DNA of 64,000 nucleotides, from NCBI GenBank assembly GCA_965637545.1, contig OZ281496.1, forward strand, positions 5,766,001 to 5,830,000, in the 5' to 3' direction. Position numbers and translations under genes: made by a program. Positions 3,025-49,850 of this stretch are shown here, piece by piece (position 1 is the stretch's first letter; each line of letters begins with the position of its first letter). The stretch comes from Phallusia mammillata. Lineage: Eukaryota. Under the pieces are notes generated by a model. It was not told where the DNA came from and did not search any database. It worked only from the letters and a program-made list of their open reading frames with translations.

Positions 3025-4675
3025 TATGTTTTTGAAAAAAAATCTTTTTAAAAAGAGATCTGCAGTCCCACCAATTTTGTTGTTGCAGGCCCCTTTGCAA
3101 GTTTCTTCTTTATTTCATTAGCTTGTGCATGGCGTTGATATGATAACTTTATGTATCAAAATGCCTGTAGGTAAATATAATGCTTTGAAATACACTTCAT
3201 TTATTTTGCTGCAACCTTGTTATCCATAGTATTAAAGCTTTATGTTTTGTATTTTGCCATATGTAACACAGACACTCATCAGTTCTCAACAGTACCTTTC
3301 CATCATTTTTGTTTTTAAAAATACCACATTAACAAAACATAACACTAGCACACCACATACATCCAATGCACAAAATTTAACAAAACATAGGCCTAATACT
3401 AAAATATTCTCTTATCACAGAAAGTCTTTATTAAAATTAATGTGAAACTTACTTCAAAGTTTTATCCTCTTTTCTGAGGGTCGTCCATAGTCCAAGCAAC
3501 CAAAAACAATTTGGGCAAAATCGGTTAATCTGTGAATGCCGAAGTATTAATCTCTTTAGGCTATGGCTAGCGCCGCTAGCGGTAGGCACATGGGCGCAGG
3601 TACCGACAAAAGAATAAGGCTCAAGCCCAAGGGAGTTGAGATTCCCGCACTTTTTGTTTGGCCGTTGGGCGCAGGCGGTGAGCCAAGCATGACGCAATTT
3701 TAAGCCATCGGGTGATCAAGCGTGAAATCAATTAAACAGCAAGTTTTATTTGTTTTCCAATGGGTTTTGGATTGTATATTAAAATTTTTTGATTAGTATT
3801 ATTTCCCTACAATCATTTGAAGTTTCGATTGCAACTTTAATGCGATTGTTTATGGTGATAAGTAAACGTAAAAAGTTAAAGTGTTTGGTGTCAGTCGAAT
3901 ACATGTGCTTTCAAAAACTGTTTTATTTGAAAAAAATACAAGCGTTAAAAAGACATGGTAAGATCAGGTTAAAAAAACCTACATTGTTTGACTACGGTAC
4001 CAATACCATTGAACACCAACAACCCAATTTGTTTGGGTAGAGTACAGCCCTATTTTACACAAACGATTTAGGCTAAAAAAAATTTACCCAATAAAGTGGG
4101 GTATATTTTTTTGGGTAACGCAAATTTGGGTAAAAAACATTGGGCAACAAATCAGTTTGCCCAAAATACTTGGGTATGTCGCTGCTGTACCCAAAGATCT
4201 CTTGGTCGTTTTACCTAAAATTGTTTACAGTGTTAGGGAGTTTCAAATTACGATGAAATTACGAGTGTAACAGGTAAAACATGAAACGATTTGATAAACA
4301 GCACAGGTTTGCGACCGTTTAAACAACAAGCATATGGTATATTTTACTTTGTGTTTAAAATACCCCATGTTGGTCGCTGGTAGAATTGTCAGCAGTCAGT
4401 CAAAGTACTCGCCATGTTTCGTTTTCAATTGCATTGTAAGATAAAAGTTGTAAAAGTTAACAAAAGTGGAGAAAGTTGTTGAGATACAAACTCTTAGAGA
4501 CAAATACATAGAAACAAGCGATATGAGATAATGCCCAGAAACATTTTGATTTTTCTGATATATTTGGACCTTGCCTTTCATACTTTGCAGAAAATATAGA
4601 TAGTCGTAGGAATTAAACCACAATTTTCCTATAGTGATGCAAGTGTGTACTAAAATGTCGTTAGTGCGCTATAGG

Positions 4676-5005
4676 CAGGGCTGCCATACCGTCCTTGTTT
4701 CTACGATTTTTTCAAAGGGTAATGTCTACGACAAAATGTTGTGCTGTTTTTCTAAAATACGTCTATTGACTTGAGTCCTTCCTTATTTTAACAGGTACAA
4801 ACCTTTTATCTTTTCATTGTTGTATCTGGTGTGGCTTAACATACCAAACACGTTTGTGACCAAAGAAAATATAACAAATATGGCATGTGATGTGTCATAG
4901 TTAGAAAAAAAGAAATGATTTGTTCAAAAACGTTTGTTTAGTTTAGTATGAAAATGAAATCTTTTTGTTGTCCTTATTTTGAGATCCATGTCCATGGCAA
5001 ACCTG
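4676..5005. mobile_element. hAT-type MITE (same family as 61833-62210)
   Basis: TIRs CAGGGCTGCCAT / ATGGCAAACCTG. Diverged 8-bp TSD GCTATAGG/ACTACAGG. Internal GTCCTTATTT motifs. Confidence 0.75.
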
Positions 5006-5079
5006 ACTACAGGACATTTTTGCTCTAATCAGCTCGCAGTGATTTCAAAGAATTAGTTGCCAAAGCGTTATGACGTAAA

Positions 5080-8000
5080 TAGTGGGATACGTGGTAGAGG
5101 CGCAGTAGGTCTGAAAGGACGTGGTGGTGGTGGAGGAGGCATGTTCACCTGATTGAGGTGGTGGTGTTTACCTGGAAGTGGTGGTGGTGGTGGAAAATTT
5201 ACCTGGAAATGGTGGTGGCGGTTTTTTTTTCACAATGAAAGGGGTAAAGTTTTTTATTGTATATAGATGTGGGTCTCGTGTTTTACACATTTCTGCTGCG
5301 GTGCAAGTATATCCTTGTTAATTTGCTTGTAAAAAAACCTGTGTTGGAAAGGTGACGTAGCGGGCGTTGGAGAAATGTTGACGCGCGTGAACGATTACCG
5401 GTACTTCCCCTTGCAACAATGAAAAAGTTGGGCGGCTCGTTAGGTTACATGCGTTGATGCTGTTTTGAAATCTTGTCACACACTTTGACAGATAAGCTGA
5501 TAAAGTAGCAAAGGAAACGGTAAATAGAAAACACAAGCTTTGTAGCCTACTCCGACAAAAGTTACAACTTATTTTCAGTTTCCCTTTAAAAGACACAATC
5601 CAAACCTTTAAACACAAACCTTCTAAATTTGACCAAAAGAATAAATTTTTGAAGAAATAGCATCTTCTAAAAACAACTATAAAAGTAAACAAAGAAGGTA
5701 GCAATGGTTTAAAAACACCAATCCTCTGAAATAATAACAACAAACTATAAAATCTATTCCTGAGAAGTAGTAGTTACTGCCACCTTTTAGAAAAAAAAAT
5801 ACACCTTGGAAGTGCTTTGAAATTTATTGATTTAAAATCAGGTCATTAAACATGTTTATTTTGGGCAGCCTTTTGTGTAAAAAACTGACTTAAATAGAAG
5901 TTTCTTTTAAACGCCAAACCAAATAGGCCTAAACTTTATTTTCTAAGAAATAGCATATCTTAAACAACTTAAAGGAAAAGTTAAAAAAACTCCAATACGC
6001 TTTCAAAAACCAACCTAAAAATCTTCTTCTCTTGAAAAGCGTCGTTAGCTTTAAAGCGAAGAAGGAGGTGCGAATAAGCACCGTTACCTGTAGAAACTCT
6101 GTAAACACTTTTGTTTTAAGCTACCTTTCAAAATATCTGTAAACGCCGAACCTACTAAAAGTGAGCAATAAAATCGTTTTCGATAAAATAGCATCTTCTA
6201 CAAATTACTCAAAAATTTAAACAGACGAAAGGAATGGTTTCAAAACACAAATCCGCTCATATAATAATAACAACCTATAAAATCTCTTCCTTAGAAAAAG
6301 TATTTTCTACAACCTTTACAGAAAAAATACAAAATACACATTGGAAGTGCTCTGAAATTATTGGCTTAAAATCAGGTCATTAATCCTTATATTAAGCAGC
6401 GACTTAAAACGAGCTTTCTTTCAAACGCCAAACTAACAACATACTTTTAAAATCCCCAACCTCACGACAATAAAGCATAAAATCCTTTTCTAAGAAAGAG
6501 CGTTTTGTACAAATTACTCAGTCATAAAAAAATGTTTTGGTGATTGGTGATTTAAAACTAATTCTTACCGAACTAAGAAATTAAAATCTCATTTTATAAG
6601 CAAGCTGCATAAGAAACACTAAAATGGCAGTTTTTCGATAGCCCACTACAAGAACTGGGTATAAAGTTTAATGTTTCCAAACAGTACCATAAAAGCATTG
6701 TCTTTACTCTCTCTGCAAAACGTTCAAGCCCAATACGCAGGGGTAAACTGGCAACTTGTTTCGTGCTGCTAAGTAGAAAATAGCACCCAAATGATTTGGT
6801 TCCCACGAAAACTGCCATACCATACATTTGCTTTTTGTCTGGTTGACCCAATCTAAGAAAAATGGACTTGCTAGTTTTGATGGACTGGTATGGGAAAAAC
6901 AACTGCTTTATTTGTCAAAAAAAATATCAACCAAAAGTTCTAACAATAACTTTATACGTGCCCAAAAATTTGTCGTTAACAAAAAATTAATCATTAACCG
7001 GTCAGACAAATATAAAAGAACCCGACCGGGGTCGGGATTATGCTGCCCTGTGTTTAGTATACCTTAAGAAATCTCGAAAAAATCTTGTTCCTGATAAAAA
7101 CGAATGTGAATCAAACATAGTTATTCGGTTCCACAAGCAAGCAATCCACGGCTGTGTTTTTCGCACCGACATATAACTAAAATATGTACCGTGCATCTTT
7201 TGTTGACCTTTTCAATGTACCACACATAAAGTAGGGTCGTTTCGTTAAAGTTTAAATTCAAAACTAAAGCATAAATTTAATTTTTTACCTGATTTAGTCA
7301 CTTCACCATCGTTTTATACCTCTTGATGCGAATTCTTTGAAAGCCTGTTTGATATGACGATTAACGTGTCTGACTGAGGAAAATCAACAGACTTTAAGTC
7401 AAATGTGAAATGTCAGTTGGCGAAGTGTTCGCATGTCAAAAATGAAAAAATAACTATATGTTCTTTTGCGCGATAAACATTTTGCTTTGTAAAAAAAGTT
7501 TTTCTTCGCTTGTCGTACGTGTCAAAGCTTTTCTTCCCACTGTTCGGGAGTGACACGCGATTAGCGCACTTGCGTGACTGTTACACGAGCGAAATGGGAG
7601 ACGTCTGTGCCAATCAGCCATCGGTATTTGATAGTCTCGCTAAGTCGGTGTAACTGTCGCTGACAGTTTTCGCCCTTTAATTCGAATCGCCCTTTAACTT
7701 TATCCTATTCTAGTCATGTAAACCTTCCGCCCAATGCTGTGAAAACCACAATGAAAGCTCAACATATTCCGTTGAGTGTGTCTTTATGTTGTAACCCGAC
7801 AAGTAATTGTTCTCCAAAGTGTTTGTCGTAACGGGAGATCCTTTTTTATTAAATTGTTTTATTTCTGCTCTTTGCCAAATTACACAACCCTCTGTCATTA
7901 TACATGAACGATGTACTTGAAAGCTTTCACACGCTACTGGACGCTTCATGCCAACTCGAGGAGCGTAGAGACATCGCAAAGCACCCCGCTTCTTTGCTCC

Positions 8001-8938
8001 AGTGCGTCGTTGTCAAGTACTTGGCGGTTTTGCTTTTGCTCAGCGTTAACGGTGGCAAGTACGACATCAACATAACCAAACGGTGGTTGATACCTGTTTT
8101 AATGACGAAGAGGAAAATTGACTTGTTGCGATAAAGGGTTTAACCATTTGCGCATCAAAGCCGCTTTGCGCGCAATATCTCATACGGCACGTTTTTGCAC
8201 AGCTTCAACTGTTCGACTGAAAAGTCGTTTGTTTCTTCTTAAGATGACTGATCTGTCTACACACTGAATGAAACGCGTTTTCTCTTTATGACTGCCTTTC
8301 ACAGTTCGGTTTCTGCAGCGGTAGTCAATCTCTTTTATTTTTTATCGGTTTATGGTTTATTTGCATTTTTTCGAGCACTCGCGATTCAAGCTAAAAATAT
8401 TTATTAAACTAAATACAGCGAAAACAAACAAAACTTAGCGAAACAAAACTGTTAGATAACACCTTCAAGTTTGTTTATTTCTTGCAAAGGTATTTCCACA
8501 ACAACATGCTTGATGAATTGCGTTTACTTTTATTAGATTACTTCGTAGTTCTTTAGTCACATACAAAACTAAAACAATGATGAAATCGTGCGCAAACAAT
8601 TACCTCTGTTAACAAAATTTCAGCTCTTCCGGCAGTTTTTTTATTTCTAATATGCCAACGTTTCTCTGTTGTTCATTGAAAATCTGATATTACATAAGAT
8701 TTCCCGAACTAGCGGGTGGAAGAAAATGTTCTGGACAGTTTACCAAAGAGAATATGTGATGTTATATGTTTATATTTTAGATAGTTTCAGGCAGATCTTA
8801 TCTTCGTTTCGTTGCTTGTTTTACAATCCGATGGTCGCTGAACTTGCTCAAATCGCAACATGTCAGCTTTCGCTGCGTGATTGTTTCTTAGATTGGTAAA
8901 AATAATAAAGAGAAGAACTGTTATTTTTCTTTGGGTTT
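5080..8938. repeat. Left arm of a giant inverted repeat
   Basis: Reverse complement of 10238-13504 over its length (e.g. 5081 AGTGGGATACGTGGTAGAGG vs 13484-13503), roughly 90% identical by eye. Arm-specific insertions at ~6575-7255 and 8611-8670. Confidence 0.93.
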
Positions 8939-9049
8939 GTGGGAATACCGTAATTTTTCCCTGTGTTGTTTACGAAGCCACGTACTTAATCCATTATATT
9001 TCTTCACTTGTCAACACGAAAGTTGAAAAGCCTCGTCAGAAGATATCCA

Positions 9050-9825
9050 AACAGTGCGATTGTTGAATGTTACATCATGTATTCTTTGAACACAAGTTCT
9101 CTGGTAGTTATGTTTTCGATTAAACTTTTGTATTTGCCATGTGAAAATTCGTTGCATAAGGTCCCCGCCTCCGTTATTTACCTAGCCTAAACCCATATAT
9201 TTTTTTTCGTTTTCAAACGAAGCTTATAAAATCCACGTCGACAAACAGAATGTAGGCAAAACAAGCAAAAAATTACTCAACAACCAAACGTGCAACTCTC
9301 GAGTCTGAAGACAAAAATAACTGAAAGAACGGAGATCTTTGATCAAATATGTCGCAAAACGCATTACGCTCAATATCCGAAGCCGAATGCGTTGGAAGTG
9401 TGTCGGTTAAATTCGGTCTGGGGTAATTTTTTTGCAAAATGAAGAGCTGTGTAAGCTTGTGTTTGCTGTTTTTCCTAAATTCCCGTATGTTTTAGTCAAG
9501 ACACACCTAAAACTAGTTTATCTAAAACCCGAAAAGTACGGTTACTGCAGAGTGCAGATTGTGTACAAGTCCACCTTCGTCGTGTTATTACCGATTGCAT
9601 CAAATACATGACAAAAGACGTTGCAGCGGATGGGTTCGTGCTAAAGTTTAAATGCAAAACTGGAGTCGCACCCGAAGCTTACCTAATGCGGGCTTGATTC
9701 GGCACTGACTTTACCTTATGCAACGAATTTTCACATGGCAAATACAAAAGTTTAATCGAAAACATAACTGCCAGAGAACTTGTGTTCAAAGAATACATGA
9801 TGTAACATTCAACAATCGCACTGTT
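9050..9825. repeat. 113-bp near-perfect inverted repeat pair (9050-9162 / 9713-9825), MITE-like
   Basis: AACAGTGCGATTG...GCATAAGGT vs ACCTTATGC...CAATCGCACTGTT, one mismatch seen. No TSD found. Confidence 0.88.
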
Positions 9826-10237
9826 GTCATGATCAGTGCGGGATGTAAATCAAGCTATTCTTTATACACAACTTCTCTGGCAGATATGTTTTTTGATTAA
9901 ACTACTCTTCATGTACGTGTACAGTGTATCTAAAAAACATAAACTCTCATAAAAAAGTGACAACCAATCTTACACCTTTTTTTGGAAAACAACAACAAAA
10001 AACAACACGGCAAACAAAGATTCAAGTTGCAAGGAGATGTAACAGGGAAATATATCTCAAATCAAAAAAAAAAACAATCGCTATGATTTACCCGTATGGC
10101 CCACACAAATGTTTTACGTTCAGTCTAACCATCATGCCCTTTCGTTAAAGTTTAACCAATATTATTCTTGTTTTCAATTTTTTTCCTTGACAGTTTTTTC
10201 TGCTGAGGTTATCTTGTGGGCTTAATTAACATGCTTT

Positions 10238-13200
10238 AAACCAAAGCAAAATAACAGTTCTTCTCTTTTTATTTTAGCAAATCTAAGAAACAATCGCGCA
10301 GCGAAAGCTGACATGTTGCGATTTGAGCAAGTTCAGCGACCATCGGATTGTAAAACAAGCAACGAAACGAAGATAAGATCTACCTGAAACTATCTAAAAT
10401 ATAAACACATAACATCACATATTCTCTTTGGTAAACTGTCCAGAACATTTTCTTCCACCCGCTAGTTCGGGAAATCTTATGTAATATCAGATTTTCAATG
10501 AACAACAGAGGTAATTGTTTGCGCACGATTTCATCATTGTTTTAGTTTTGTATGTGACTAAAGAACTACGAAGTAATCTAATAAAAGTAAACGCAATTCA
10601 TCAAGCATGTTGTTGTGGAAATACCTTTGCAAGAAATAAACAAACTTGAAGGTGTTATCTAACAGTTTTGTTTGTTTTCGCTGTACTTAGTTTAATAAAT
10701 ATTTTTAGCTTGAATCGCGAGTGCTCGAAAAAATTGCAAAGAAACCGTTTTGATAAAAAATAAATAAAAGAGATTGGCTACTGCTGCAGAAAACGAACTG
10801 TGAAAGGCAGTCATAAAGAGAAAACGCGTTTCATTCAGTGTAGACAGATCAGTCATCTTAAGAAAAAACAAACGACTTTTCAGTCGAATAGTTGAAGCCG
10901 TGCAAAAACGTGGCGTATGAGATATTGCGCGCAAATGGTTAAACCCTTTATCACAACAAAGTCAATTTTCCCCTTCGTCAATAAAACAGGTATCAACCAC
11001 CGTTTGGTTATGTTGATGTCGTACTTGCCACCGTTAACGCTGAGCAAAAGCAAAACCGCCAAGTACTTGACAACGACGCACTGGAGCAAAGAAGCGGGGT
11101 GCTTTGCGATGTCTCTACACTCCTCGCGTTGGCATGAAGCGTCCAGTAGCGTGTAAAGACTTTCGAAAACATCGTTCATGTATAATGACAGAGGGTTCTG
11201 CAATTTGGTAAAGAGCAGAAATAAAACAATTTAATAAAAAAGGATCTCCCGTTGCGACAAACACATTGGAGAAGAATGATTTGTCGGGTTACAACATAAA
11301 GACACACTCCACGGAATATGTTCAGCTTTCATTGTGGTTTTCACAGCATTGGGCGGAAGGTTTACATGACTAGAATAGGATAAAGTTAAAGGGCGATTCG
11401 AATTGGTAAAACTTCAATAAATCAGCGACAGTTACACCGACTTAAGCGAGACTATCAATTATCGATGGCTGATTGGCACAGACGCCTCCCATTTCTCTCG
11501 TGTAACAGCCACGTAAGTGCGCTAATCGCGTGTCACTCCCGAACAGTGGGAAGAAAAGCTTTGACATGTACGACAAGCGAAGAAAACCTTTTTTTTTCAC
11601 AAAGCAAAATGTTTATCGCGCAAAAGAACATATAGATTTTTTTTTTGACCTGCGAACACTTCACAACTGACAATTAACATTTGACTTAAAATCTGTTGGT
11701 TTCCCCCCGTCAGACACGTTAATCGTCATATCAAACAAGAATTCGCATGAAGAGGTATAAAACGATGGTGAAGTGACTAAATCAGGTAAAAAATTAAATT
11801 GATGCTTTAATTTTTTAAATTGACGGTAAGAATTTATTTTAAAGCTCCAGTCACCAAAACGTAGTTTATGTCTGAGGAATTGGTACAAAACGCTCTTTCT
11901 TAGAAAAGAATTTTATGTTTTATTTTCGTGATGTTGGGGAAATTGAAAGTATGTTGTTAGTTTGGCGTTAAAAAGAAAGTCGCTGCCTAATATAAGGACT
12001 TTATTAATGACCTGATTTTAAGTCAATAATTTCAGAGCACTTCCAATGTGTATTTTGTATTTTTTCTGAAAAAGTTGTAGAAAATACTTTTTCTAAGGAA
12101 GAGATTTTATAGTTTGGTATTATTATATGAGCGGATTTGTGTTTTGAAACCATTTTTTTGTCTGTTTAAATTTTTGGGTACTTTGTAGAAGATGCTATTT
12201 GTTCGAAAAAGATTTTATTGCTCACTTTTAGCAGGTTCGGCGTTTACAGATATTTTGAAAGGTAGCTTAAAACAAAAGTGTTTACAGAGCTTCTACAGAT
12301 AACGGCGCTTTTTCACATCTCCTTCGCTTCAAGGCTAACGACGCTTTTCAAGAGAAGAAGATTTTTAGGTTTGTTTTTGTGAGGTTGGTTTTTGAAAGCG
12401 TATTGGAGCTTTTTTAACTTTTCCTTTAAGTTGTTTGTAAGATATGCTATTTCTTAGAAAATAAAGTTTAGGCTAATTTGGTTTGGGGTTTAAAAGAAAC
12501 TTATATTTAAGACAGTATTTTATATAAAAGGCTGCCTAGAATAAACATGTTTAATGGCCTGATTTTAAATCAATAAATTTCAAAGCACTTCCATCGTGTA
12601 TTTATTTTTTTCTAAAAGGTGGCAGCAACTACTATTTCTCAGAAAGATATTTTATAGTTTGTTGTTATTATTTCAGAGGATTGGTGTTTTTAAACCATTG
12701 CTACCTTCTTTGTTTACTTTTATAGTTGCTTGTAGAAGATGCTATTTCTTCAAAAAATTATTTTATTGGTCAAATTTAGAAGGTTTGTGTTTAAAGGTTT
12801 GGACTGTGTCTTTTAAAGGGAAACTGAAAATAAGTTGTAATTTTTGTCGGAGTAGGCTACAAAGCTTGTGTTTTCTATTTACCGTTTCCTTTGTAGATAA
12901 CGGCGCTTGTTCATGTGTCTTTTTTCTCGTTTCAACTCTACAACCTCAGCCATTCAATTTTGACTTAGTCATAGTTAACCACCAACACAGAGAAACTCTT
13001 CTCTACTACGCTGCTACTAAAATTAAGCTTTGCCCCAGAGACTGTGTTTGATAACAGCAGAAAGCTGCTACTTTATCAGCTTATCTGTCAAAGTCCGTGT
13101 TTGAAAAGATTTCCAAACAGCACCAACGCATGTAACCTAACGAGCCGCCCAACTTTTCCATTGTTCCAAGGGGAAGTACCGGTAATCATTCACGAGCGTC

Positions 13201-13504
13201 AACATTTCTCCAACGCCCGCTACGTCACCTTTCCAACACATGTTTTTTTGCAAGCAAATCAACAAGGATATACTTGCACCGCAGCAGAAATGCGTAAAAC
13301 ACGAGACCCACATCTATATACAATAAAAATCCCGCTCAACTCTACCCATTTCATTGTGAAAAAACCCTCCACCACCATTTCCAGGAAAATTTTCCACCAC
13401 CACCACGTCGAGGTGAACACCACCACCTCAACCAGGTGAACATGCCCCCTCCTCCATCACCACGTCCTTTCAGACCTACTGCGCCTCTACCACGTATCCC
13501 ACTA
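10238..13504. repeat. Right arm of the giant inverted repeat
   Basis: Reverse complement of 5080-8938, with its own ~170-bp insertion at ~12893-13065. Confidence 0.93.
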
Positions 13505-13689
13505 CTAACAACAATAAACACGTTGTACATAATGTACATTACCTTCACACTTTGTACCGCAATCTTACAATATGACATGATACTAATTAAGTAATTATTA
13601 AAAGATTATAGGCGTTGACTGTTTAATAGATAAACCAAATTAACTCTAGTTTTTCACTGAACTTGGGTAAAATGTCGAAAGAAATTTTT

Positions 13690-16445
13690 AGGAAATCTTT
13701 ATTTCCAGGTTAAAATCAGTTGTCAGTTTTAAAAAAACAAATATATTTCGCTAAAGTAAGCATCTTCAGTGTCTACAGAGAGCAATAAAAGGGATTAAAA
13801 TTAGAAAAAGCCAACAGTTCATTTGCAAACATGATCTTTTCTCAACTGAAAGCCTAGCAGACTAAACTGACTGTAAACACGCAGTGATAGATAAGAAACG
13901 CAAGAAAGATAAAAACAGTAAAACGTAAGAGGCGAAGAAAAAAAACACACGTCACTTACACCTCGGTAAAACCATTTTTTAATGTTAATTTTTGCATCGA
14001 TTTTATTAAGCCACCTGTCTTCGGCTATATCCAGGTCCGCAGTACGTGGTTGTTCGACAAACACAACACAGTAACAACTTTCAATTGGTGGTTTCTTTTC
14101 AAACTCGTTGGGGTGTCGGTCTTTAAAGTGATGCAAAAGCGCCGCGTCATCATTACGCTGCGAAGTGTCGAACTTCGCCCAAATGGCACGGTGACCCGAC
14201 CACCGAGTGGCAAACCGATTTTTAGTTTGGCCTAGATATTGTTCTTGGCATAGGTGGCAAGTGGCGACATAAATGCCATAACTCCTACATGTGAGATGTT
14301 GGGAGATCTTAAAACTGCGATTTGAGGTTTGCAGAAATGTGCTTTGTTTAACCATGTCGGTTTTGTAGCTACCATGGTTGCCACATAGGGCACAATGCCC
14401 GCAGGGATAGCATCCTGATGGAGCGCAATGATGCAGTCGCCCTAAAGCAAGTTTCCTTGGGCGTAAAAAGAATTCTTGTAGGAAGGGTGGTCTTTTATAA
14501 GTCATCATACAGTTTGGTTTAAGTGCATTTTCTTTATCTGTGAGGCGCAGTAGCGCTGGGAATCCCGTGGCCCAAACGAGTTTCTTGGTCCTCTCTTTGG
14601 AATGCCTTGTGTTTTGGTGGCGCTGTTCCTTCCAGGTTTTTGCCTCTTCTACAAGAGCAGCGGTCATTGCTTTACAAAAGCCGGAGCAGTTTGCCTTTAA
14701 CTTCAACCTTTTCAGGCTGTTGTTATAATCCAAATACAACTGATTGAGGTATCTCAACCGAATCGCTTCAGCTCGTACAATTGAACGAAAAGTAGCAGGC
14801 GGATGGTGCGATGACCCATGTAAAAACAGTCGATTATAACTGGTTGGCTTTGTGTAGCTGCACGTAACAAACCGACAGGGTTGTGCTGGTGTTGTTCTGT
14901 GAAGCACATCTAAAAATTCTTGTCAACTTCATTGGTGTGTAAAGTGCGTATTGTTAGTTTTAACCCAAATCGCGCAAATCGATTTTTGAGAGCATTGATA
15001 ATTCGCCTGGCAGAAATTTCACCAATGGAAATAAAAACAATGTCATCAATAAATCTCTTGAAGATTTGCGCTTGAGACAGCACTGGGGCGATTCCAGAAA
15101 TGATGTGGTGCATCGCTATGTTCGCGATAGCAACTGAGTGGTTGTCGCCAGTTGCTATGCCATTTTTTATTCCATAAAAGCGTTCCTTGAACTGCGTGAC
15201 CACGTTTGCAACAGTGAAGGCTGTAAGTTGGATGATGATCTGTTTAACCTTACCAGAGTACGTGGAGTGGTTGTTTAGCGCATTTTTTTACGAAGACTTT
15301 ATGAGGGAATGTTTAATGTTTGGATATAGCGATACTACATCAGCCGCAACAATGTATAGAGGGTTTGCATCTAGCTGTTCTGGTATGCTGTTAATCTTAG
15401 CCTCTTCCCAGTCGAGCAAATTGTCGATGTATTGCCTACTGTCTTTACAAAACTCATCTACCAACGTATGGCAAAATTCCTCACTGATCGGTTGAAGAAA
15501 CGCGGTTACACCTGTGGTTGTAATGTTGCCTGAAGCCTGCACTAGTTTTACAGGTATATCTTCGATCGGTATGTTACCTAGTTGCGTCACTTCCAGCTTA
15601 TGTGTCTTGAAAAGCGGGTATGCATAGGCGGGTTCCTGAGCAGAAAAGAACTTTGCGATAGAACCTGGTATATGTTTATACTTTCCATCTACAGTTTTCA
15701 TTCCTATTACGTGCTTGAGCATGGCATCATCTATGGCACCAGCTTGATGGAGACTTGTCACAAATTCTTCGCACATTTTCTTAATATTCTCGAAGTGAGA
15801 CTTTATGGAGTCCTGATCCAAGTTTAATAGAGGTAATTGTTGTAACTCCCTTTCCATAATGCTGTTGTACGATGCCTCGTTGAGAATTACCACTTTTCCG
15901 TCTTTATCTGATTTACACATAACAATTTTATTGTCATGAACTAGTTTTGAAATTTTCCGTAGGCTGCAACGAAGGTCAAAAGAAAAATTGTTTTCGCTTG
16001 TGAACATTCGCTTTACCTTTGCTTCTAGCAGACGTACCTTAGCGAATATTGATTCAGTGTATGTTTTAGTTATTTCATCTAAGACTTCAGTTTCCGGCCG
16101 CGAAAAACTTGGAATCGCAAGCTTACCAAAGAAGTTGTAGTACGATTTATCACTTTCGTTGTCCGAAAAGACAAAGTCCCACTCCACCCTCCTGACGTGT
16201 TTCAATGCTTCGAGCCATTCGGTTGACTCCATCCGTGTGGTCCATCGAAGTGTAGGTACAAAATTTAAACCGTGAGCCAGCATTAACTTGTCTTTGGGTG
16301 TCAATTCTGTGTCGGATTTGTTAAGTACTGAAGCTTCCGCTACCTGAATTTTATGCAAATGTGTTGATAGTTTTCGCCTGTTTCTATATCTCTTTCCGTC
16401 CCTGGTGTTCCTGGATTGTGCACACTGAAAGGTTTTGAAACTGGC
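13690..16445 (-). mobile_element. Penelope-like element (Neptune-type), RT + zinc finger + GIY-YIG, disrupted
   Basis: ORF pieces 15288-16358, 14910-15203 and 13819-14907 join through a stop at 15288-15290 and a frameshift near 14912. Motifs: LAHGLNFVPT, AADVVSLYPNI, GIATGDNHSVAIANIAM, KRFIDDI, CYPCGHCALC linker and GIYVATCHLCQEQYLGQT. A hammerhead motif and AATAAA lie downstream. Confidence 0.9.
13734..13776 (-). ncRNA. Minimal type I hammerhead ribozyme motif at the 3' end of the Penelope-like element
   Basis: Minus strand AGACA-CUGAAGA-U-GCU(UACUUU)AGC-GAAA-UAUAU-U^UGUUU. Intact core, 3-bp stem II, palindromic stem III and 5-bp stem I. Confidence 0.7.
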
Positions 16446-17669
16446 TATTTAAAGTCATTTAATTGAATTGTCAAACACAACATGTAATTTAATCATAACA
16501 ATGTCACAAATAATTTAATTTTAGGCAAATAGAGCATCATCCCTTACTTTGGCTAAATGAAACACAGATCCAAGCTACTTGACACGCAGAAAAAAGCACA
16601 GTAGGCAAACTTTCCCTGATTTCTGTGCATTTTAAGCGCCCGAAATCTGTTAAGCCCAAAAGAAGACAGAAAAAATAAAGCAAATAAACTTTTTGTAGGT
16701 CTGTGTGCAACGTTTTTGCCTTTTGAGGACCCTTTTCGATACTGTTATCTAATTGCGGACCCCTTTGAGTTTTAGTTATTTTTGTTGTGCGCGTATTAGC
16801 AAGTTATCGCGAAACCCCTGTTAAATGACCACTGGTCTAAACGGACTTAAAGCCCCACATCAATTTTCTGGCTCTCTTACATCTTGACTATACTTGCTTA
16901 TATTTAGATGTCTCAGACAATCCTCATGTATCACCAAAAAATTACGCACCATTTTTATCAAATACTGCTTACTTATTTTGCAGTTTAGGCAAAATGCTTT
17001 AATACAGCTTTGACGTACTTACACATCTGCTTGTTGCGCGTGCCTGTGCTAGCACAAAGCAAGCAATAATGACAAAAGGGTCAACTAGAAAAGTGTATAC
17101 TCGTTCGGTACATTGAATACAGCGAGATATATTGCTTCAGATGAAAGTTGCAGGTGTTTCCCGCATTACATTTGCAGATGAATATTGAATACTTGACAAA
17201 CCTTGGGAATTTTGCAAGCTCTAATGAAAATCTGTCATTGCAGTTAGTTTGGCCAATTTCAAGTCAATATGAATGACGCTTGTAATTGGACACGCTGGAA
17301 ACGAAAATTGTTGCACAGCTGACTGTCATATTGCGAACCCATAAGGTGCCGGCAGACTCACACATTTTTATTTGCAGATTGTTGATTGCATTAATGTTTA
17401 TTCTGTTTGCAAGCCTGTGCATTGTTTAGAAAACATTATAATGCCGCAAAGAATCTGTATGTTAGGTTTGCAAAATTGTTCAAACATAGTAAAATTTGAG
17501 GGTTTGAATATTAAACATAAATTATTTGTTTTACATGTTATGAAATTCTAATGCTTCATACAACGGTTTTAATTACACCAGGGAAAGTAATGTGTAATAT
17601 GAATAAACTGTTGCTGCCAGACATAATGTATCAACAAATTTGTAGCTCTTTCAGCAGTTTTGATTATAA

Positions 17670-18352: not shown

Positions 18353-18935
18353 CTTTAGGCGCTCGTTCAGTGACCTGTCCGGCACTTTGGTGTACAAAGG
18401 CTTTGGTTTAACTGTTGGTGGGTCATCAACTGTAGGTACCTGGATGTGCTGGTTTGTTTGTAGACCAAAGACAAGAATATTTTAACCCTGGATATTGAAA
18501 TGTCGACACCCCTGGTTGGTACACTTTGTTCAAGCGTGTATCACAAACTAAACAGCATTACAAGGTACGTACAGTTCTAAATGTTCTAAAACAGAAAAAC
18601 TGATGTTCTAAAGCCGATTAGCTATCGGTCCGATATTTATCAACGTTTTATTGCCGTTTTCGCGCCTGTGTCTTTTTTGTGTTCAATCTCGGGGTGTTAT
18701 AAGAACAGCTGTGTTGGGATGTAGACACCCTGTATATGACGTCGAACTTCGGATCCGGCGCGCCTGACCCATATACAGACACATACAAACCTGATCGGGA
18801 TTCGTCCCCGGAAAAGTCCTGGGTTCGAACTCCGTGAAAAAAAAAATGCCTATTTTATTTCAGCTCATACGATGTTAATTGTAAATCAGTTTAACTATTT
18901 TCTTTATAATACCTGAATAACTAATTTAAAAAGAG

Positions 18936-19622
18936 ATGACATCAAAGGACTTCGGTTTTTATGATCGAAGGCTTACTGAGGGTGGAAATGTAAAACAACA
19001 TGTGCCGAAACACAGCAGTGAGAAACTTCATCGATGTGAGGTTTGTGAAAAAACTTTTGCCCGAAGAGGAACTTTGAAAAGACACATGTTGGTTCACACA
19101 AAAGAAAGACCATATCGATGTGATATTTGTGAAAAAGGGTTTGCCCGCATGGAAGTTCTAAAATCACACATGTTGACTCACACTAAAGAGAAACCTCATC
19201 GATGTGATACTTGTGATAAACGATTTACCCGAAGTAGACTTTTGAAAAGACACATGTTGACTAACACTAAAGAGAAACCTCATCGATGTGATACTTGTGA
19301 TAAACGATTTACCCGAAGTGGACTTTTGAAAAGACACATGTTGACTCACACTAAAGAGAAACCTCATCGATGTGATGTTTGTGAAAAAGGGTTTGCTCGT
19401 ATGGGAAGTTTAACAACACACATGTTGACTCACACCAAAGAGAAACCTCATCGATGTGATGTTTGTGAAAAGAATTTCAGTATCATTTCAAATTTGAAAA
19501 GACACATGTTGACCCACACGAAAGAGAAACCACATCAATGTGATGTTTGTGAAAAGAGTTTCAGTATCATTTCAAATGTGAAAACACACATGTTGATTCA
19601 CACTAGAGAGAAACCACAATGA
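18936..19622 (+). CDS. Tandem C2H2 zinc-finger protein (7 fingers, one with H>N)
   Basis: Repeated CxxC-x12-HxxxH with TKEKPHR linkers at 84-bp periodicity. Degenerate fingers continue past the stop to ~19840. Confidence 0.85.
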   Translation: MTSKDFGFYDRRLTEGGNVKQHVPKHSSEKLHRCEVCEKTFARRGTLKRHMLVHTKERPYRCDICEKGFARMEVLKSHMLTHTKEKPHRCDTCDKRFTRSRLLKRHMLTNTKEKPHRCDTCDKRFTRSGLLKRHMLTHTKEKPHRCDVCEKGFARMGSLTTHMLTHTKEKPHRCDVCEKNFSIISNLKRHMLTHTKEKPHQCDVCEKSFSIISNVKTHMLIHTREKPQ

Positions 19623-22566
19623 TGTGATACTTGTGGTAAATCATTAATCCAAAGTGGAAGTTTGAAAACCCTCCTGTTGATTCACAATAAAAAGAAGCCT
19701 CATCGATGCGATGTTTTTAGTAAATGATTTACTTGGTCTGGAATTTGAAAAGCACATGCTGGTCCATCAATGTGTTGTTTGTGAAATTCCATTTAATGCA
19801 ATTTCAAGATTAAAAATTCACTTGTTGACTCACAACGAAAAGTAAGTTCTTAGTTTTACCGACTTGAAGTTTATTGAAAGGTTTACTTTGGGTCAAAGTT
19901 GCCTTTTTGTGTAGATTTGGTTTTCTAACAGTGTGAAACATGTATTACGCAGAGTAAAAATAAAAACGGTGACTCTATGTACAGTTATCAATGTTTAAAT
20001 GTACAATAATTGAAATTAGAAATTAGGCGCCAGTAAATGGGTTATTTTGAGACACATGCTATTGTTTAAAATGTATTTTTTACAACATTACAAAAAAAAA
20101 ACACTTCTGTTCGGTCCCGCCATATTTAGTTACATAAACTCGGATAATAATGTTTCATTAAAATCAATAACATCCAAGCATGAGACTGTCAAATTTCACC
20201 AAAACAAACAAAAAATATAGAAAACAAAAAATAACAATTAATTTGCTATATGACCTAAAATAAGCATAATATCGCTTTCACGGGGAAACGGCCAGTTAGA
20301 ATTTTGCAGCTCCTGCTCCAGGGTTAGCTGGATCTTCATGAGGACTTTAGTTTCTCTTTGTCCTACGTAGCTCTATATTTGAATAGGTGCGTAGTGCAAA
20401 AGTTATGTCCAGTAAAGCTGCGTTATCTTTGGTTTCGAAGCAAACCATTCAAGAATATAATCTGACCAATGACAATAAAGTTAATTAAAAACAGTTTATT
20501 ATGTATTTTTGCCAATTTTTGTACTTGCAAACTTTTGATTTATTTGGAAGAGAGATTTGCAATCTCTTAGAGAGATTTAAACAATAATAATATTTTATCG
20601 TTAAATCCGATTTAAATGACAGTTTGTATGTAAGATTTGTAAATCATTCAAATACTCCATTGTACCAAAGGTCTGTGTTGATTAATGTAGAATTTTATGC
20701 AGTATTTATACTTAAACGTGATATTTAAGCCAATTTATTTGCAATATAACAAAAAAATCTTTAAAAAAATCACTGGAAGGTAAAACCGTATAATTTGATA
20801 ACCTACTTGGTTAAGAAATATTGGGATCGCTTTAACTGGAACAATTGCTTTCATATGTTTTCCAATTACGTTTTGATTTGCGTTAAACTCAAAACACTAA
20901 TACCAAAATATTATAGTATGTACGTTGATGTTAAACTGTAACTCTTTGCTTGTTTCTTAAGTAGTCGTATAGTCACATCCAGCAATGAAACTCGTGTTGC
21001 AAAATATATTCTACGACATCCTGTCAAGACACTATCTACAGCTTAAAACAGATATTTCGGTCTGAACATTCTTCACGTATTAATTTGTATCGTTCTATCA
21101 CAATCACTCGAATCTGTACATAACGTTATTATTTTTTCGACTTTACGTTGAACCCAAAGCTAGATGAAAATGTTTAATACAATTCTTATGCCTATGTGAT
21201 AGCAAAACAAAAATGCAAATGAATACTTTTTTCACAACAATATCAGAATGTTGGACATGAAGCAGAAATCTTTCAACCATGCAATGGGATTAAAGCAACA
21301 TGATGAACATGTCAGTCGGGTAATAAAGGAGCATCTACGCAATCGAGTCCGCTGTTACAACAATGCTACGTATTGGAACTTGCCGAACTGAGCGAAAAAC
21401 AAATTCAAATAATTAAAATGTTGAGAAATGAGTCTGAGTTTGTTTGCGTTTAACACTCGACAGAAGCAAAAGTAATATACAAATATGGATTGATGTATTA
21501 GCGGATAAATGGGCCCTAACTCTATTTCATCAGTTGCTTATTTAGCAAACATTTTTTTCAGACATCAAACAACTTTTTTGTACTTGTATTAGTAATATAA
21601 AAATACCAAATCCTTTCAAATTATTATGCACCGAGTAATGTAAATAAAGAAGTGCCTTAATAATTTTATGCATCTAGTAATGTAGATAATCAAGTATTTT
21701 AAAAGTATTATGAGCCTAAAAGGGATTTCCAATTTTATTTATCAACAACATGCGATTTATATATGAGGAGACCCTCATAAAGCAAACGAAGCATTTTGAC
21801 TGCACTTTTCAATTTTAACTTGTACTGTTAGAAGTGAGTAAATTTAAAATCTTTAAAAAAAAGTATAAATTAAAAAAAAGTATTAAGAAGATTACAATGT
21901 TTACATTATGGTTGCAAGTTTCTATTTTCGTTGTTCGATAATATATTTGGATTCAACTGCTGCAATAATTAACGTCTCAACGTTGCGCAGCTATCTCGGC
22001 AAGGTGAATAATTTAGTGCAACTGTGTTACTACGATTTTTTCACTCAACTCAACTCAATACGTACTGGAAATCCTTTCACTCGGGCAAGACTAAATAGTT
22101 TGACTAAGCTTGTGCTTTAAGGATTTAGTTTTCATTTGATTGATTTAGTAAATTTTTATTTTATAACCTTGTTTCAAACCTTGACTAAATTCAAGCTTTT
22201 GTTATTTCAAATCACGCGTTGCCTCTAAGCGTCTGCTATGAATTTATATTATCGCTCATTATTGCTTGTTAGGGATACAAACACTCAGGCAGATCGTGAT
22301 GCGTAAACTTACGTTTTGTTTTCAGGTTTTCGTACGTAGATATTTAAATGTCTTTTGCTAACCCATCAACCTCCCGTGTAAGACAACAAACAATGACATC
22401 AAGTTTTTCAATGAACCCGGGTATGGTCCATTTGTAACAAGGATAACTGCGACATATTTTGCAAGTTTAATTTTTTTGTTTGTGCTGGAACGGCAAATTT
22501 TGTATCAGTTGTATATTTTGACCAACTTTTGCTGTGCATTACAACAACGCTTTTTGTCACAAAGAT

Positions 22567-28991: not shown

Positions 28992-29333
28992 ATTTGAATA
29001 ACTTGGTCGGCATTAACAAACTTTTACAAAGTTAACAACAAGACACTATGAAAGAATAAGTAAGCTGCAGACAGTGCACACAGTTTCAACCGAAAAGGTC
29101 TAATCAGTGCAGATGGTGACAAGAAAAAAGCCTTTATAAAGTTAACTAGAAAAAGCTTGTTTAAACCTTACATTCATAGTTGTAAAGTTGATTCATAAGT
29201 ATTTCAAAATTATCGCTTGAATTTTCACTGTCCATTTTATTAATGGCAAGAATTTTGTCTTTCTTCAAAAGTGATTCATCAAACAGCTCCAATTCCTAAA
29301 CAGAAAACAAGAAATGCCAAACACTATATGAAT

Positions 29334-29623
29334 GACTTTGCAAGCATAAGGCAGGTTTCCTATCGAGCTTCGTGCAGTCAACCATAGCGCTTGTTACATG
29401 CACGACTTTGCAAGCTTAAAGAGGGCTTCCTAACGAGCTTCGTGCAGTCAACCATAGCGCTTGCTGCATGCACTACTTTGCAAGCTTAAAGCGGGTTTCC
29501 TAACGAGCTTCGTGCAGTCAACCATAGCGCTTGTTACATGCACGACTTTGCAAGCTTAAAGCGGGTTTTCTGACGAGCTTCGTGCAGTCAAGCATAGCAC
29601 TTGTTACATGTACGACTTTGCAA
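29334..29623 (+). repeat. 70-bp minisatellite, 4 units plus a partial unit
   Basis: Unit GACTTTGCAAGCTTAAAGCGGGTTTCCTAACGAGCTTCGTGCAGTCAACCATAGCGCTTGTTACATGCAC at 29334, 29404, 29474 and 29544. Confidence 0.93.
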
Positions 29624-42600: not shown

Positions 42601-45600
42601 TCATTCTCGGATCTCAATCACTCTGTCGCCTTCTTCATCTGCACGAACATTGTATATCACAGCTAAATCAGATGAGCGATTTGTAGATGCACGGAGAATA
42701 GACAATTTCTCCATCAGCCATTTCTTTGCCCTGACAAGTTGATCTTCTATTGCTTTAGAGTAAAGCAAGGGATTAAGAGCGCTGTTGATTGGAAGCAACA
42801 GACAAGCGCTCAACACATAAGCATCTGGTGGTATCATGATTCCTCCAACACTCAAATATCCCATAACACAAATTGGAATCCAGCAACAGAAGTCGGTCAA
42901 AATCAACCTTGAGATTCTCTTTTGCATATTGGAGCTGACATCATTGCTTCTAGATCCTTTCATCCGGTTACTATGTTTGTAGATGAGAACATATGCAACA
43001 ACCATGTAGATGAACATAAGCAAGTTGATTGTGATGAGTAAAGTTGAATATTCCCAAGCAAATTCACTGGTTGTGGCAAACAAACGTGGCATACAGACAC
43101 TTGTTTCTCCATAATATCCAAACTCTCCTTTAATTGGGTTGCGAGGAAATGCCATTCTTATAGTTCGTTTCACATCGTCCCACCTCTCCGGTTTTACATT
43201 ATCAATTCGTTCTGCAAGAAGTGACATGTTTTCTCTGGAAACAAAATCATTTCCAAAAAAGTTGTTTCGAAACCAAACATCAGTTGCAAAATATCCCGAA
43301 GTGACATTTAGCAAAGGAACAGTTGCCAAAACAACAGCTGAAATCCAGCAAAACAATTCAGCAAATAAAACTTTACAAACACCTACACTTCGAATTGTAA
43401 ATGGTTTAAAAGCTGATATTAGACGAAAGGTTGTCATGGCTGTCATTGTAAACGCTGATGCTTCTGAAGAAATAATTGCAAGTGCTCCAAGTCCCGAACA
43501 GAAACTACTTGACCTCCACTCCTTATCATATAAACAGTATGTGCCAGAAAACTGTGCCGCTTGCACTATAACTACAAGCAGATAAATTCCCATTAAGAAA
43601 TCTGAGCAACAGAGGTTTAGAAGAAAAATACTGGTGTTAATAAAAACATTTTTGTTCCTATCTACATTCCATAAGCTGTGAGCAGTTGCAACAAACACAA
43701 ACGAATTTCCTCCCAAAGCTAACACAGCTGTTATCCAGAAAATCGCTCGGTACATTGCATTGGCAATCATTTCATTGACATCTGCAAAGACGTCCCCAGC
43801 CAAGTTCACACATTCATCACTTCCGTCTGAACAATCACGAATTCCATTCTGCACCAGTTTCTTTTCAACCGACATGGGTTGTTTGTTTGTGCAATAAAAC
43901 CTTGTTTTATCACAACGGCATCTACTTTCATCAGATTCATTGTCACAGTCGATAATTCCGTCACAAACAGTTTTTCTGTCAATGGAAACCCTATCTTTTG
44001 ATTTGCAATAAAATTGGGTTTTGTTACAACGTTGTACAAATTCATCGGAGCCGTCGTCACAATCAACTTTTCCGTCGCACACCTGATAGTTCCTTATGCT
44101 GATTTCTCCATCTGAGAAACAATAAAACATGTTTCGACAATTCATTTCACCAAATATTCCAAAACTGTCCTTAGTCGTTCCATCACATGCGAAGCTTAAC
44201 CAAAATTTCACAAGAGAAGAATCATTTTCCAATCGTGGCCAGGATTTATTTAACAAATTGTAATCAGTTCTCACGCACATCAAAACTTTGTCAATTCTAT
44301 CCGGATTTCTTAATATACATTGAGTTAGTAAGTCATTTTGAGACGAACAATACTTCTTGTTTATTTGATCAACACATTCCACGCTTGGGTTGCACAACTT
44401 TCCACTTTGAACTGAACAAACAGATTTATTTTGGCAATGCATCTGATTTGAAGGACAATCACCCCTTATATCATTACACAAACTTTGATCAAAACACAAA
44501 CACTCATCTGACATATCAAAGCAATCCACTATACCGTCACAAACTTGCTTGGGTGATATGATTAACTTTTTATCCAAGCACTGAAAACATTTGAACTGTT
44601 CCTTGACAAAACAAAGATCAGATTTATCAGAACATTGAGCCACTGAATCGTAAACATTGATTTGTGGCAAAACGCAAACACCTTGTCTGGATGATCCAGA
44701 GCATTTAAACCCAAATCCTGACTTAATTTCATCACTATTGTCACTACAACTACTAACTCCGTCACAAAAATCACTTCCAGCAATGAATTTTTGTTTTTCA
44801 CAAATGAAATAATTCTTACAATTTTTTTTTATATTTTTGCAGTTTGAGGAGACACAAATCACATTCTTGCTTTCACAACTGTTGATGTCATCAGCACATG
44901 ATGGTTGGATTACTGTATTGCACTCTGCAGGAACTGTGGAATGTACAAGATAACTGGCAAGTTGTTCACTCTTACAAGTTGTGGCAAACATTGTGCAAGA
45001 TTGACATGTGAAGTTGGAAACTGAACAAAGTTCGTCACTTCCATCATAGCAATCCTTAAATCCATCACCAATCCAGTCAATAGGTATGCATCTGCCTTTA
45101 GATGGGCAATGTTTGTTACCAGGATCACACGGACATTTGACATAAACTCCAGAGCAGTTACATGTGTAATGTGTCTCATCACTACCATCAAAACAGTCAC
45201 GATTTCCATCGCATAATAAAGATCGGTTAATACAACTTCCAGCTATACTGATATCGCATTGTTTTGTGTCAACACATGCACATTGAAACTTATGAGCTGG
45301 GCAAGTGCAATTAACTTCATCACTCCAATCTTCACAGTGATTAAGTCCATCACATTGCGAGTCTTTGTTGATGCAACTGTATCTAGTTGTGCAGTTCTTT
45401 GTTTTGTAACAATCACATTCAAACTTGTTAGCCGGACAAGTGCAATTAACTTCATCACTCCAATCTCCACAGTTATTATATCCATCACATTGCAAGTTTT
45501 TGTTGGTGCAACCATATCCAGTTGTGCAGTTCTTTGTTTTGTAACAATCACATTCAAACTTGTTAGCCGGACAAGTGCAATTAACTTCATCACTCCAATC

Positions 45601-46258
45601 ATCACAGTCATTATATCCATTACATTGCAAGTCTTTGTAGATGCAACCCCATATATTTGTGCAATTGTTTGTTTTGTAACAATCACATTCAAACTTATTA
45701 GCTGTACAAGTGCAATTAACTTCATCACTTCCATCTGAACAATGTTTCCTTCCATCACATCGCCTCTTCTCCCTCACACACCCAAAACGACCTTTACAAG
45801 TTGTGTTGAAGCAGTCACACTGAAAACTGCCTTTAGCACAAACCTCACTATACTCGTCGCTCCAATCACCACAGTCGTTAAACCAGTTATTTACCCACGA
45901 CATCCCAATACATCCTGGTTTGTCCCCACACCGACCAAACTTGTGACAAGCACATTCGAACATTGAAGAAGGGCAGGTGCAGTTGGGACCGCGGTACGGT
46001 TTCTCGCACACCGAGTGATTTTCAGGTTCTGTGAAAAAATTCGCAAAAATAAGTTTTACAGAAAAATAAAATGATGCACAAGTTGGAAAGAAATACATCT
46101 GTTTAATTTGCTACAAAACATGTGCTATTAACTATTGGATTGATTTTGATCGAGGTAAGCTTACTTGTATAAGGTCGAGGAGCGAGACTGAAATCCTCGC
46201 CCGGACATTCACCTTCCGCGCATCCGACGAAAAACAATAGAAATAATAACCACAGCAT
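42601..46258 (-). CDS. Rhodopsin-class LGR/RXFP/GRL101-related GPCR with ~13 LDLa repeats and no LRRs; join(46213-46258, 42601-46028), 1157 aa
   Basis: Signal-peptide exon MLWLLFLLFFVGCAE with a phase-1 GT-AG intron. Repeated CDGxxDCxDxSDE motifs. 7TM motifs GGNSFV, LNLCCSDFLMGIYL, YYGETSVCMP, LILTDFCCWIPI and LLPINSALNPLLY. Confidence 0.92.
45286..45825 (-). repeat. 135-bp coding tandem repeat (45-aa Cys-rich LDLa units)
   Basis: AAACTTGTTAGCCGGACAAGTGCAATTAAC recurs at 45421 and 45556; about 4 units. Confidence 0.88.
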
Positions 46259-48716: not shown

Positions 48717-49409
48717 TCTTGGACTGTCCCATGTCACCTAAATTCTCCACCATTTAGACAACTCCTTGCAAACAAATTTAATACTAATCTCGAAATTACC
48801 CTGAACCTCAAATCCTTTACACAATCTCACACCAAAATTATTGAAACAGAAATTGAACTTCTTAAATAAACTCGTCTACAATCAAACATCTTTGCAAAGT
48901 GTATTACCGCGAAAATATTTGTTTAAAATCTAAACATTCACACCACGATAAAAAAATTCGTCGATAACTATGTCGAAATTAAATTTGGTATTATTACATA
49001 TCTAATAATTAACAACAGACACGCAGCGCAAACCAGTACATGTAATACTTTGTACTATTACGTGTCAATTGATTTATTAAACTCTGAACCCACTTTCAAT
49101 TTGCATAAACCGCGTTACTGTAAGGAAAGCCAATTTCGCAGAATATTTATAGGCACAAAAACGGAAACGACAGGTTATACGTAGCACTGCCTTCTATCTT
49201 TCGGTCTTACACACCGGCGTCATCCAGCTTGTTTTCTCAAATCGAATGACGAACGCCAATTTGCGTATACACTGTACGTATGTATTAATTGCAAAACCAC
49301 TAAATGTTTCTTTATGGCCCTTTATACATATTTTAAATTAACGGTTTGAATAAAATCAAATGCGTATTATTGCAGGTTTCGGATATATAAAAGGCTCGTT
49401 TATAAACTT

Positions 49410-49850
49410 ACTTTAAGCTTGCAAAGTTGTGTATGTGACAAGCGCTATGATTCACTGCACGAAGCTCGTTAGGACACCCGCTTTTAGCTTGCAAAATCGT
49501 GCATGCAGCAAGCGCTATGGTTGAACGAACTATACGTTAAACCCCCAGGAAAGAAAAGACAACAATCACAATGACCAATAATATACAAACGGCCTTGAAC
49601 ATGGTGTTTTTAAGCTATTTGACATCAGGCCAACTGGCTACTTAGCTAGTTAAATTTATTCGAAAAAATACTGACACGGGGTGTAAAGTCAGGCCCGAAT
49701 CAAGCCAGTTGTTTGAGAAAACCTAAGCCCGAAACCGGCCCGACTTACAACTCTATGTAGAAAGCTATGTGGTAGACTGCACGAAGCTCGTTAGAAAACT
49801 CGCTTATCTGTGCAAAGTCGTGCATGTAACAAGCGCTATGACTTGCTTTG
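49410..49850 (-). repeat. Inverted-orientation units of the 70-bp minisatellite family
   Basis: CTTTAAGCTTGCAAAG, AAGCGCTATG and CTGCACGAAGCTCGTTAG at ~49410-49525 and ~49765-49850. Confidence 0.82.

Follow-up and report, generated by a model that had tools for sequence, protein, structure and literature searches.

Non-autonomous Polintons were reportedly described by Kapitonov and Jurka in 2006, and these may include zebrafish members with kilobase palindromic arms. Foldback (FB-type) transposons have kilobase inverted arms with internal repeats and a short loop, and foldback or Mutator-like DNA transposons show 8–10-bp target-site duplications (TSDs) and transposase-type ends. For Mavericks, Barreat and Katzourakis (2021; PMC8097293) give (AGT)2//(ACT)2 ends, 6-bp duplications and a decayed state for 96% of copies, and describe intact vertebrate elements with terminal inverted repeats (TIRs) of 46–1447 bp around eight core genes. 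Snap-back or copy-back defective viral genomes carry one end twice, inverted, and need a helper (PMC6140465), and in sex-chromosome palindromes conversion takes place between the arms (PMC3723533). Here we describe a palindrome at positions 5078–13506 of a 64,000-nucleotide stretch of the Phallusia mammillata genome (GCA_965637545.1, C3:5766001–5830000, with the contigs of this assembly labelled C1, C2, C3 and so on; the whole stretch is called the window below). It belongs to a small family of non-autonomous Mavericks whose palindromic architecture is unusual. The literature searched, which did not extend to the founding papers, Repbase or supplements, yielded no account of non-autonomous Mavericks built in this way, and there is none in the searched passages of PMC6431247, PMC3014272, PMC4028283, PMC11296320, 10.1101/2024.01.15.575659 and 10.1101/2023.08.22.554363.

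Maverick origin and sister copies

The palindrome ends as Mavericks do. Two full-length Mavericks in the same genome (C7:17447353–17464384 and C3:10285523–10302058) share ~99.5% identity and have 51-bp TIRs, several kilobases of tandem repeats at the polymerase end and, read off their flanks, 6-bp target duplications. Both begin with AGTAGTGGG, as do the window arms (exactly at the right end, with one substitution at the left) and a half copy of the element on C1. An initial annotation, made from the letters of the window alone, had already pointed to AGTAGT-like ends, which it placed at 5080 and 13504 instead of 5078 and 13506.

Inside these termini, both arms carry remnants of protein-primed DNA polymerase B (pPolB). 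The arms match a decayed Maverick relic at C2:15.77–15.78 Mb that has polymerase, protease, capsid-like, integrase and ATPase frames; in Pfam its protease is Peptidase_C5, its integrase matches rve (E 1e-16) and its ATPase Adeno_IVa2/Pox_A32, and its polymerase frame matches DNA_pol_B_2 weakly (E 0.007, below the cut-off). The capsid-like frames, which have no Pfam match, we take to be such from their position and resemblance. With tblastn, the relic polymerase frame matched window 7373–8329 (+) at 41.6% (E 8e-58) and 10943–11647 (−) at 47% (E 1.5e-53), both riddled with stops; a further tblastn match to the left-arm remnant reached 45% (E 9.5e-61) with 11 stops. The pPolB DNA of the arms is ~70–74% identical to that of the nearest relic and ~67–70% to that of the full-length copies. 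None of the window's short frames matched a Pfam family, integrase, capsid and protease frames gave no tblastn match to the palindrome, and penton likewise had no hit in it. ATPase homology in the family amounts to a 21–31-codon ATPase start in the C4 ends only, with none in the window element. The arms are inverted over their whole length, and their outer part matches the ATPase-side DNA of the C2 relic, a match (5178–5346) that is expected if this segment belonged to the parental terminal repeat. The pPolB is broken and truncated, so that an intact pPolB next to a retroviral-like integrase, as in an autonomous Maverick, is absent.

The termini, the pPolB remnants, the frame in the spacer and the lack of integrase, capsid and protease matches show that each arm is a polymerase-side Maverick end reading inwards. 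They support the view that the window element is a decayed non-autonomous Maverick/Polinton derivative of two inverted polymerase-side ends, and not an autonomous Maverick. A Polinton-derived non-autonomous element was among the initial proposals, and is supported by the pPolB remnants, the shared terminal 9-mer and the 6-bp target duplication that flanks a sister copy. The same annotation recorded no recognisable transposase; a recognisable gene remnant, that of pPolB, is present in both arms. It does not mention the sister palindromes or the pairing of arms by locus. An inverted duplication of a host gene, proposed as well, is not supported. Among other polymerase sequences in the genome, broken Maverick fragments are densely clustered at C3:11.6–17.6 Mb, which accounts for the majority of 79 genome-search matches.

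Four parts of the element were searched against the 240-Mb assembly; copy counts are lower bounds. At least two further whole palindromes were found (C1:20931272–20942059 and C4:11515019–11530127), as well as at least one half copy (C1:20816141–20819265), which brings the family to three whole copies and one half copy over three contigs. A genome-wide BLAST of the arms, the check suggested at the outset, thus finds paired arms at two more loci, one of them with a 6-bp TSD. The C4 copy lies between two copies of GAGAAG; it begins with AGTAGT and departs from this motif by a single substitution at the opposite end. It sits inside a long terminal repeat (LTR) retrotransposon, presumably BEL/Pao-like from its frames, and in five of five paralogues examined its flanking sequences lie side by side, overlapping by 5–6 bases, as empty sites. 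The duplication and the empty sites show that the whole of this palindrome entered in a single insertion that duplicated 6 bp of target. The three palindromes have lesions in common, and host repeats at window 8316–8610 and 9748–9942 occur in all of them, which argues that their common ancestor was already dead and had acquired host insertions before it spread. The family moved as one unit with no integrase of its own, and was likely mobilised in trans by full-length Mavericks.

The C1 palindrome has lost its right end, and the C1 copies have no right end at which a TSD could be read. The C1 half copy starts at the same terminal base as the window element, next to an unrelated tandem repeat. 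The same hexamer precedes this half copy and the left end in the window, a coincidence that we put down to chance given the tandem repeat. We also considered position 5080 as an internal breakpoint, since the C4 copy runs ~470 bp further, and rejected it because the full-length Mavericks start with the same 9-mer; the unrelated repeat upstream of the half copy speaks against it too. The half copy is inserted into one member of a separate inverted-arm family built of 101-bp unit arrays, with arms several kilobases apart (C8:11.195, C6:12.46, C2:5.47 and C2:17.36 Mb), and an inverted pair at C6 proved to be another repeat and no arm of the present family. The right arm of the C4 palindrome contains a later 4.4-kb insertion with internal direct repeats (C4:11524208–11528630), and related sequence lies within the C1 half copy too.

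Pairing of arms by locus

The main value of the three palindromes lies in the pairing of their arms by locus, host insertions and a swapped end included. Arm divergence within a locus is 5.07% in the window (123 of 2427 sites), about 1.6–1.8% in the C1 palindrome and 0.93% (19/2038) in the C4 palindrome, against 7.5–12.2% between loci; of the three palindromes, that in the window has the least similar arms. Because an all-in-one alignment of the arms was distorted by large insertions, block-wise alignments were used, and neither the tree nor the site counts include the C1 half copy or blocks absent from any arm. A tree of the six paired arms over 1241 gap-free columns grouped them by locus with bootstrap 100. 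In these columns, 120 sites were private to both arms of one locus (41 for the window, 45 and 34 for the others), compared to 4 in which two arms from separate loci agreed and 7 that divided the arms 3:3. Larger changes follow the same pattern. A 340-bp host repeat is present in both C4 arms and in no others, and both C4 ends and the left end of the C1 palindrome bear another terminus, with the ATPase gene start as part of it in C4. This terminus resembles an ATPase-side end from another Maverick, apparently captured once and then carried on both arms.

We consider it probable that the arms are made equal when the element moves, by fold-back copying during helper-driven, protein-primed replication. 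First, while a Maverick was replicating by protein-primed strand displacement, a template switch or fold-back would have produced a molecule with two polymerase-side ends. A copy already dead and bearing host repeat insertions would later be mobilised in trans by the proteins of a full-length Maverick; its displaced single strand could fold into a long panhandle, in which the changes of one arm may be copied to the other before integration. Such copying would reset arm identity, just as LTRs are reset by reverse transcription, and drift after insertion would give the arm differences of about 0.9%, 1.8% and 5% in the three copies. The window copy would subsequently have suffered deletions and lost its target duplication, and a short stretch near its centre probably underwent local conversion. 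Panhandles are a model for the restoration of homology in the protein-primed replication of adenovirus and PRD1, according to PMC11886824, which also states that direct evidence for them is lacking.

The best-surviving alternative, which we regard as unlikely, accepts the same Maverick-derived family and holds that arm-to-arm gene conversion in place kept the arms alike after insertion, with no reset at transposition. Multi-kilobase conversion tracts are known for Y palindromes (PMC3723533), and in the window copy a 253-base identical tract (p<0.0005), uneven mismatches (heterogeneity p 0.017) and 99% identity of an inner 113-base pair indicate that later in-place conversion does occur. The C1 and C4 palindromes fit this alternative less well: their arm mismatches are evenly spread (heterogeneity p 0.37, 0.10 and 0.53), as after one full-length reset, and C4 divergence is equal on either side of the 4.4-kb right-arm insertion (0.83% and 1.06%). 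Many arm-private indels have gone unrepaired, and arm-shared changes have no GC bias (25 weak-to-strong vs. 30 strong-to-weak), a weak argument, given that this bias has not been characterised in the animal.

Dating of the C4 insertion also speaks against conversion in place. No second LTR of the interrupted retrotransposon was found, which makes LTR-pair dating impossible, and nonsynonymous (pN) and synonymous (pS) differences were used instead. They are 3.9% and 17.3% between the interrupted element and a young paralogue, and 1.8% and 15.3% between two paralogues. Rough arithmetic from these values gives ~2.3% neutral decay since the C4 insertion, less than the 3.8% of the C4 branch, so that part of the arm-shared changes would predate the insertion.

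Several observations weigh against a reset at transposition, the conversion seen in the window copy and the missing direct evidence for panhandles among them. The dating is only approximate, and up to about 1.8% of in-place conversion would be compatible with it. Inner fold-back points differ among the three copies, which later deletions and independent origins would both fit; the whole copies number only three, and no extrachromosomal form was seen. No close autonomous parent was found, the full-length Mavericks sharing only the terminal 9 bases. As the initial annotation had noted, no target duplication surrounds the window copy, the best of the offsets tried giving 4 matching bases of 6, and its left flank is a different part of the host unit than its right flank, the two not being natural neighbours there.

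These last two features would also be expected of a chimera, in which recombination brought together two insertions or half elements from different units of the surrounding zinc-finger gene cluster. Near-identical units abound in that cluster, and arm divergence is 5% here vs. 1–2% elsewhere. We nevertheless judge a chimera quite improbable: the window arms share their 41 private changes and group together, and a flanking deletion or later insertion accounts for the flanks equally. Such an event at this locus can be true together with the family reading. A displaced left half of the target site was searched for within the window and not found, and since the left flank is another part of the host unit, the target duplication was presumably lost through later rearrangement.

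Returning to the reset, we tentatively extend it to a more general proposal, possible in our view and somewhat more doubtful than not: Mavericks may regularly throw off snap-back satellites with one end present twice, and each helper-driven round may copy one multi-kilobase arm from its partner, along with host insertions and even a captured foreign terminus.

Structure and surroundings of the window copy

The palindrome itself, as first annotated, is borne out by self-BLAST of the window, with inverted scores up to 1879 bits vs. a maximum of 41 bits in 20 shuffles of the palindrome region. With gaps counted, identity is 90.5% for 5080–5510/13504–13066, 89.4% for 5509–6596/12893–11795, 90.6% for 7260–8610/11814–10504, 96.7% for 8664–8937/10510–10238 and 99% for the inner pair 9050–9162/9825–9713. 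The earlier figure of ~90% arm identity thus holds with gaps (89–97%); substitutions alone amount to only 4.9–5.1%, with 137 of 2778 sites away from gaps substituted (4.9%) and 45 indels. The inverted part measures 3.8–4.1 kb.

The 1.3-kb spacer described earlier shrinks to 550 bp because the remainder is arm sequence in other copies: 8938–9049 and 9941–10237 belong to both arms of the C1 palindrome. Private insertions had been reported for each arm. That at 8604–8663 is a true one, with no match in the other arms examined, and most of the others are private deletions of the opposite arm; segments 6571–7250 and 12895–13067 are present in five of five other arms, and hence were deleted from the opposite window arm. 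The repeat within 8604–8663 occurs at about 20 genome sites among the matches listed, at 96–100% identity, sometimes as inverted pairs ~80 bp apart. Degenerate internal repeats, also recorded in the first annotation, were found again, three motifs recurring 531–547 bp apart. Feature coordinates are given in Table 1.

Table 1. Features of the palindrome in the window, in window positions.
Feature	Position	Strand	Remarks
Left arm	5078–9162	+	polymerase-side Maverick end; lacks a 174-bp segment retained at 12895–13067 and most of the 9826–10237 segment
Left terminus	5078–5086	+	differs by one substitution from AGTAGTGGG, with which full-length Mavericks begin; lacks a target duplication
Part of putative parental TIR	5178–5346	+	82–90% to DNA immediately upstream of the C2 relic ATPase gene
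Degenerate internal direct repeat	5617–6436	+	5617–5922/6149–6436, 74%; in arms of every copy covering the region
Broken 5' part of pPolB	7373–8329	+	many stops and frame changes; tblastn
Old dispersed host repeat	8316–8610	.	where polymerase homology ends; also in right arm, C1 and C4 copies
Left-arm-only insertion	8604–8663	.	53–54-bp dispersed repeat, 7-bp flanking duplication
Innermost left arm	9050–9162	+	112/113 bases complementary to 9713–9825
Unique spacer	9163–9712	.	550 bp; common to C1 and C4 copies at 84–87%
Remnant of the 220-codon frame that follows pPolB	9324–9685	+	broken; tblastn E 1.7e-16 vs. full-length Maverick
Short self-complementary dispersed host repeat in arm	9748–9942	.	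in all three palindromes
Right arm	9713–13506	−	lacks equivalents of 6571–7250 and 8938–9049
Second broken 5' part of pPolB	10785–11744	−	tblastn
Right terminus	13498–13506	−	ends ACTACT; host DNA begins exactly at 13506/13507
Right flank	13507–13675	.	belongs to a host unit that recurs through this contig's zinc-finger gene cluster

Short-read contigs from runs X1 and X2, which belong to one study, possibly of the assembly's own sample and hence not independent, match the left junction (4385–5295, 1 difference in 911) and are identical to the window across the inner junctions (8848–9079, 9277–9742 and 9796–10325). No contig among those listed bridges the right junction; contigs from X3 and X4, consulted for the insertion in other individuals, carry related sequence, and some stop at the same terminal base with different flanks.

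The remaining origins, DNA repair that left a local inverted duplication, a foldback transposon (as suggested initially) of cut-and-paste type, or an assembly fold-back or haplotype mix-up, could appeal to the absent target duplication and the unbridged right junction, and are scarcely credible, given that this architecture and Maverick ends recur at three independent loci, and given no transposase-type ends, a duplication of 6 bp at C4 and none of 8–9 bp, arms 5% apart with 45 indels that an assembly fold-back would not give, and the X1/X2 matches, with the caveat on their sample.

The palindrome sits in a C2H2 zinc-finger gene cluster built of a many-times repeated unit (window 13507–13675 and 18930–19761; C3:5.86–8.2 Mb) and is probably inert for the host. 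A broken retroelement at 13819–16448 (−), 300 bp to its right and with a weak GIY-YIG match (E 0.001), we take to be Penelope-like. Elsewhere in the window, a 70-bp tandem unit at 29325–29623 has inverted copies 20 kb away at 49394–49840, and an open frame of 1169 codons at 42604–46110 (−) with cysteine-rich 135-bp repeats is presumably LDL-receptor-like.

Significance and comparison with known systems

Maverick replication has so far been inferred and not observed. If every move resets the arms, their divergence would date an insertion in the manner of an LTR clock, and decayed chromosomal copies would be shown to be picked up again. If the snap-back satellite proposal is true as well, the palindromes would be a genomic fossil record of the panhandle intermediate. 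Surveys that demand integrase and polymerase at one locus (PMC8097293) would miss such elements.

The family resembles Mavericks/Polintons in its (AGT)2 end, the 6-bp duplication of the C4 copy, the pPolB-derived DNA near the end and its few, mostly decayed copies. It differs from intact vertebrate Mavericks in that the inverted part of the palindrome is 3.8–4.1 kb, the pPolB part is present twice and integrase, capsid and protease genes are missing. With non-autonomous Polintons, as these are reportedly built, it would share the need for an autonomous partner, the ends and the target duplication. From FB-type elements it is set apart by arms that are Maverick ends with pPolB, by (AGT)2 ends and by the 6-bp duplication. 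As in snap-back genomes and adenovirus–PRD1 panhandles, one end is doubled in inverted orientation, and fold-back copying can restore end homology; unlike snap-back genomes, the palindrome is an integrated DNA fossil that gathers host insertions between moves, known here from genome sequence. Sex-chromosome palindromes likewise have arms more alike within a palindrome than expected, but they are fixed, with >99.9% identity and GC-biased conversion, whereas the Maverick palindromes are mobile, with arms 95–99% identical and no GC bias seen.

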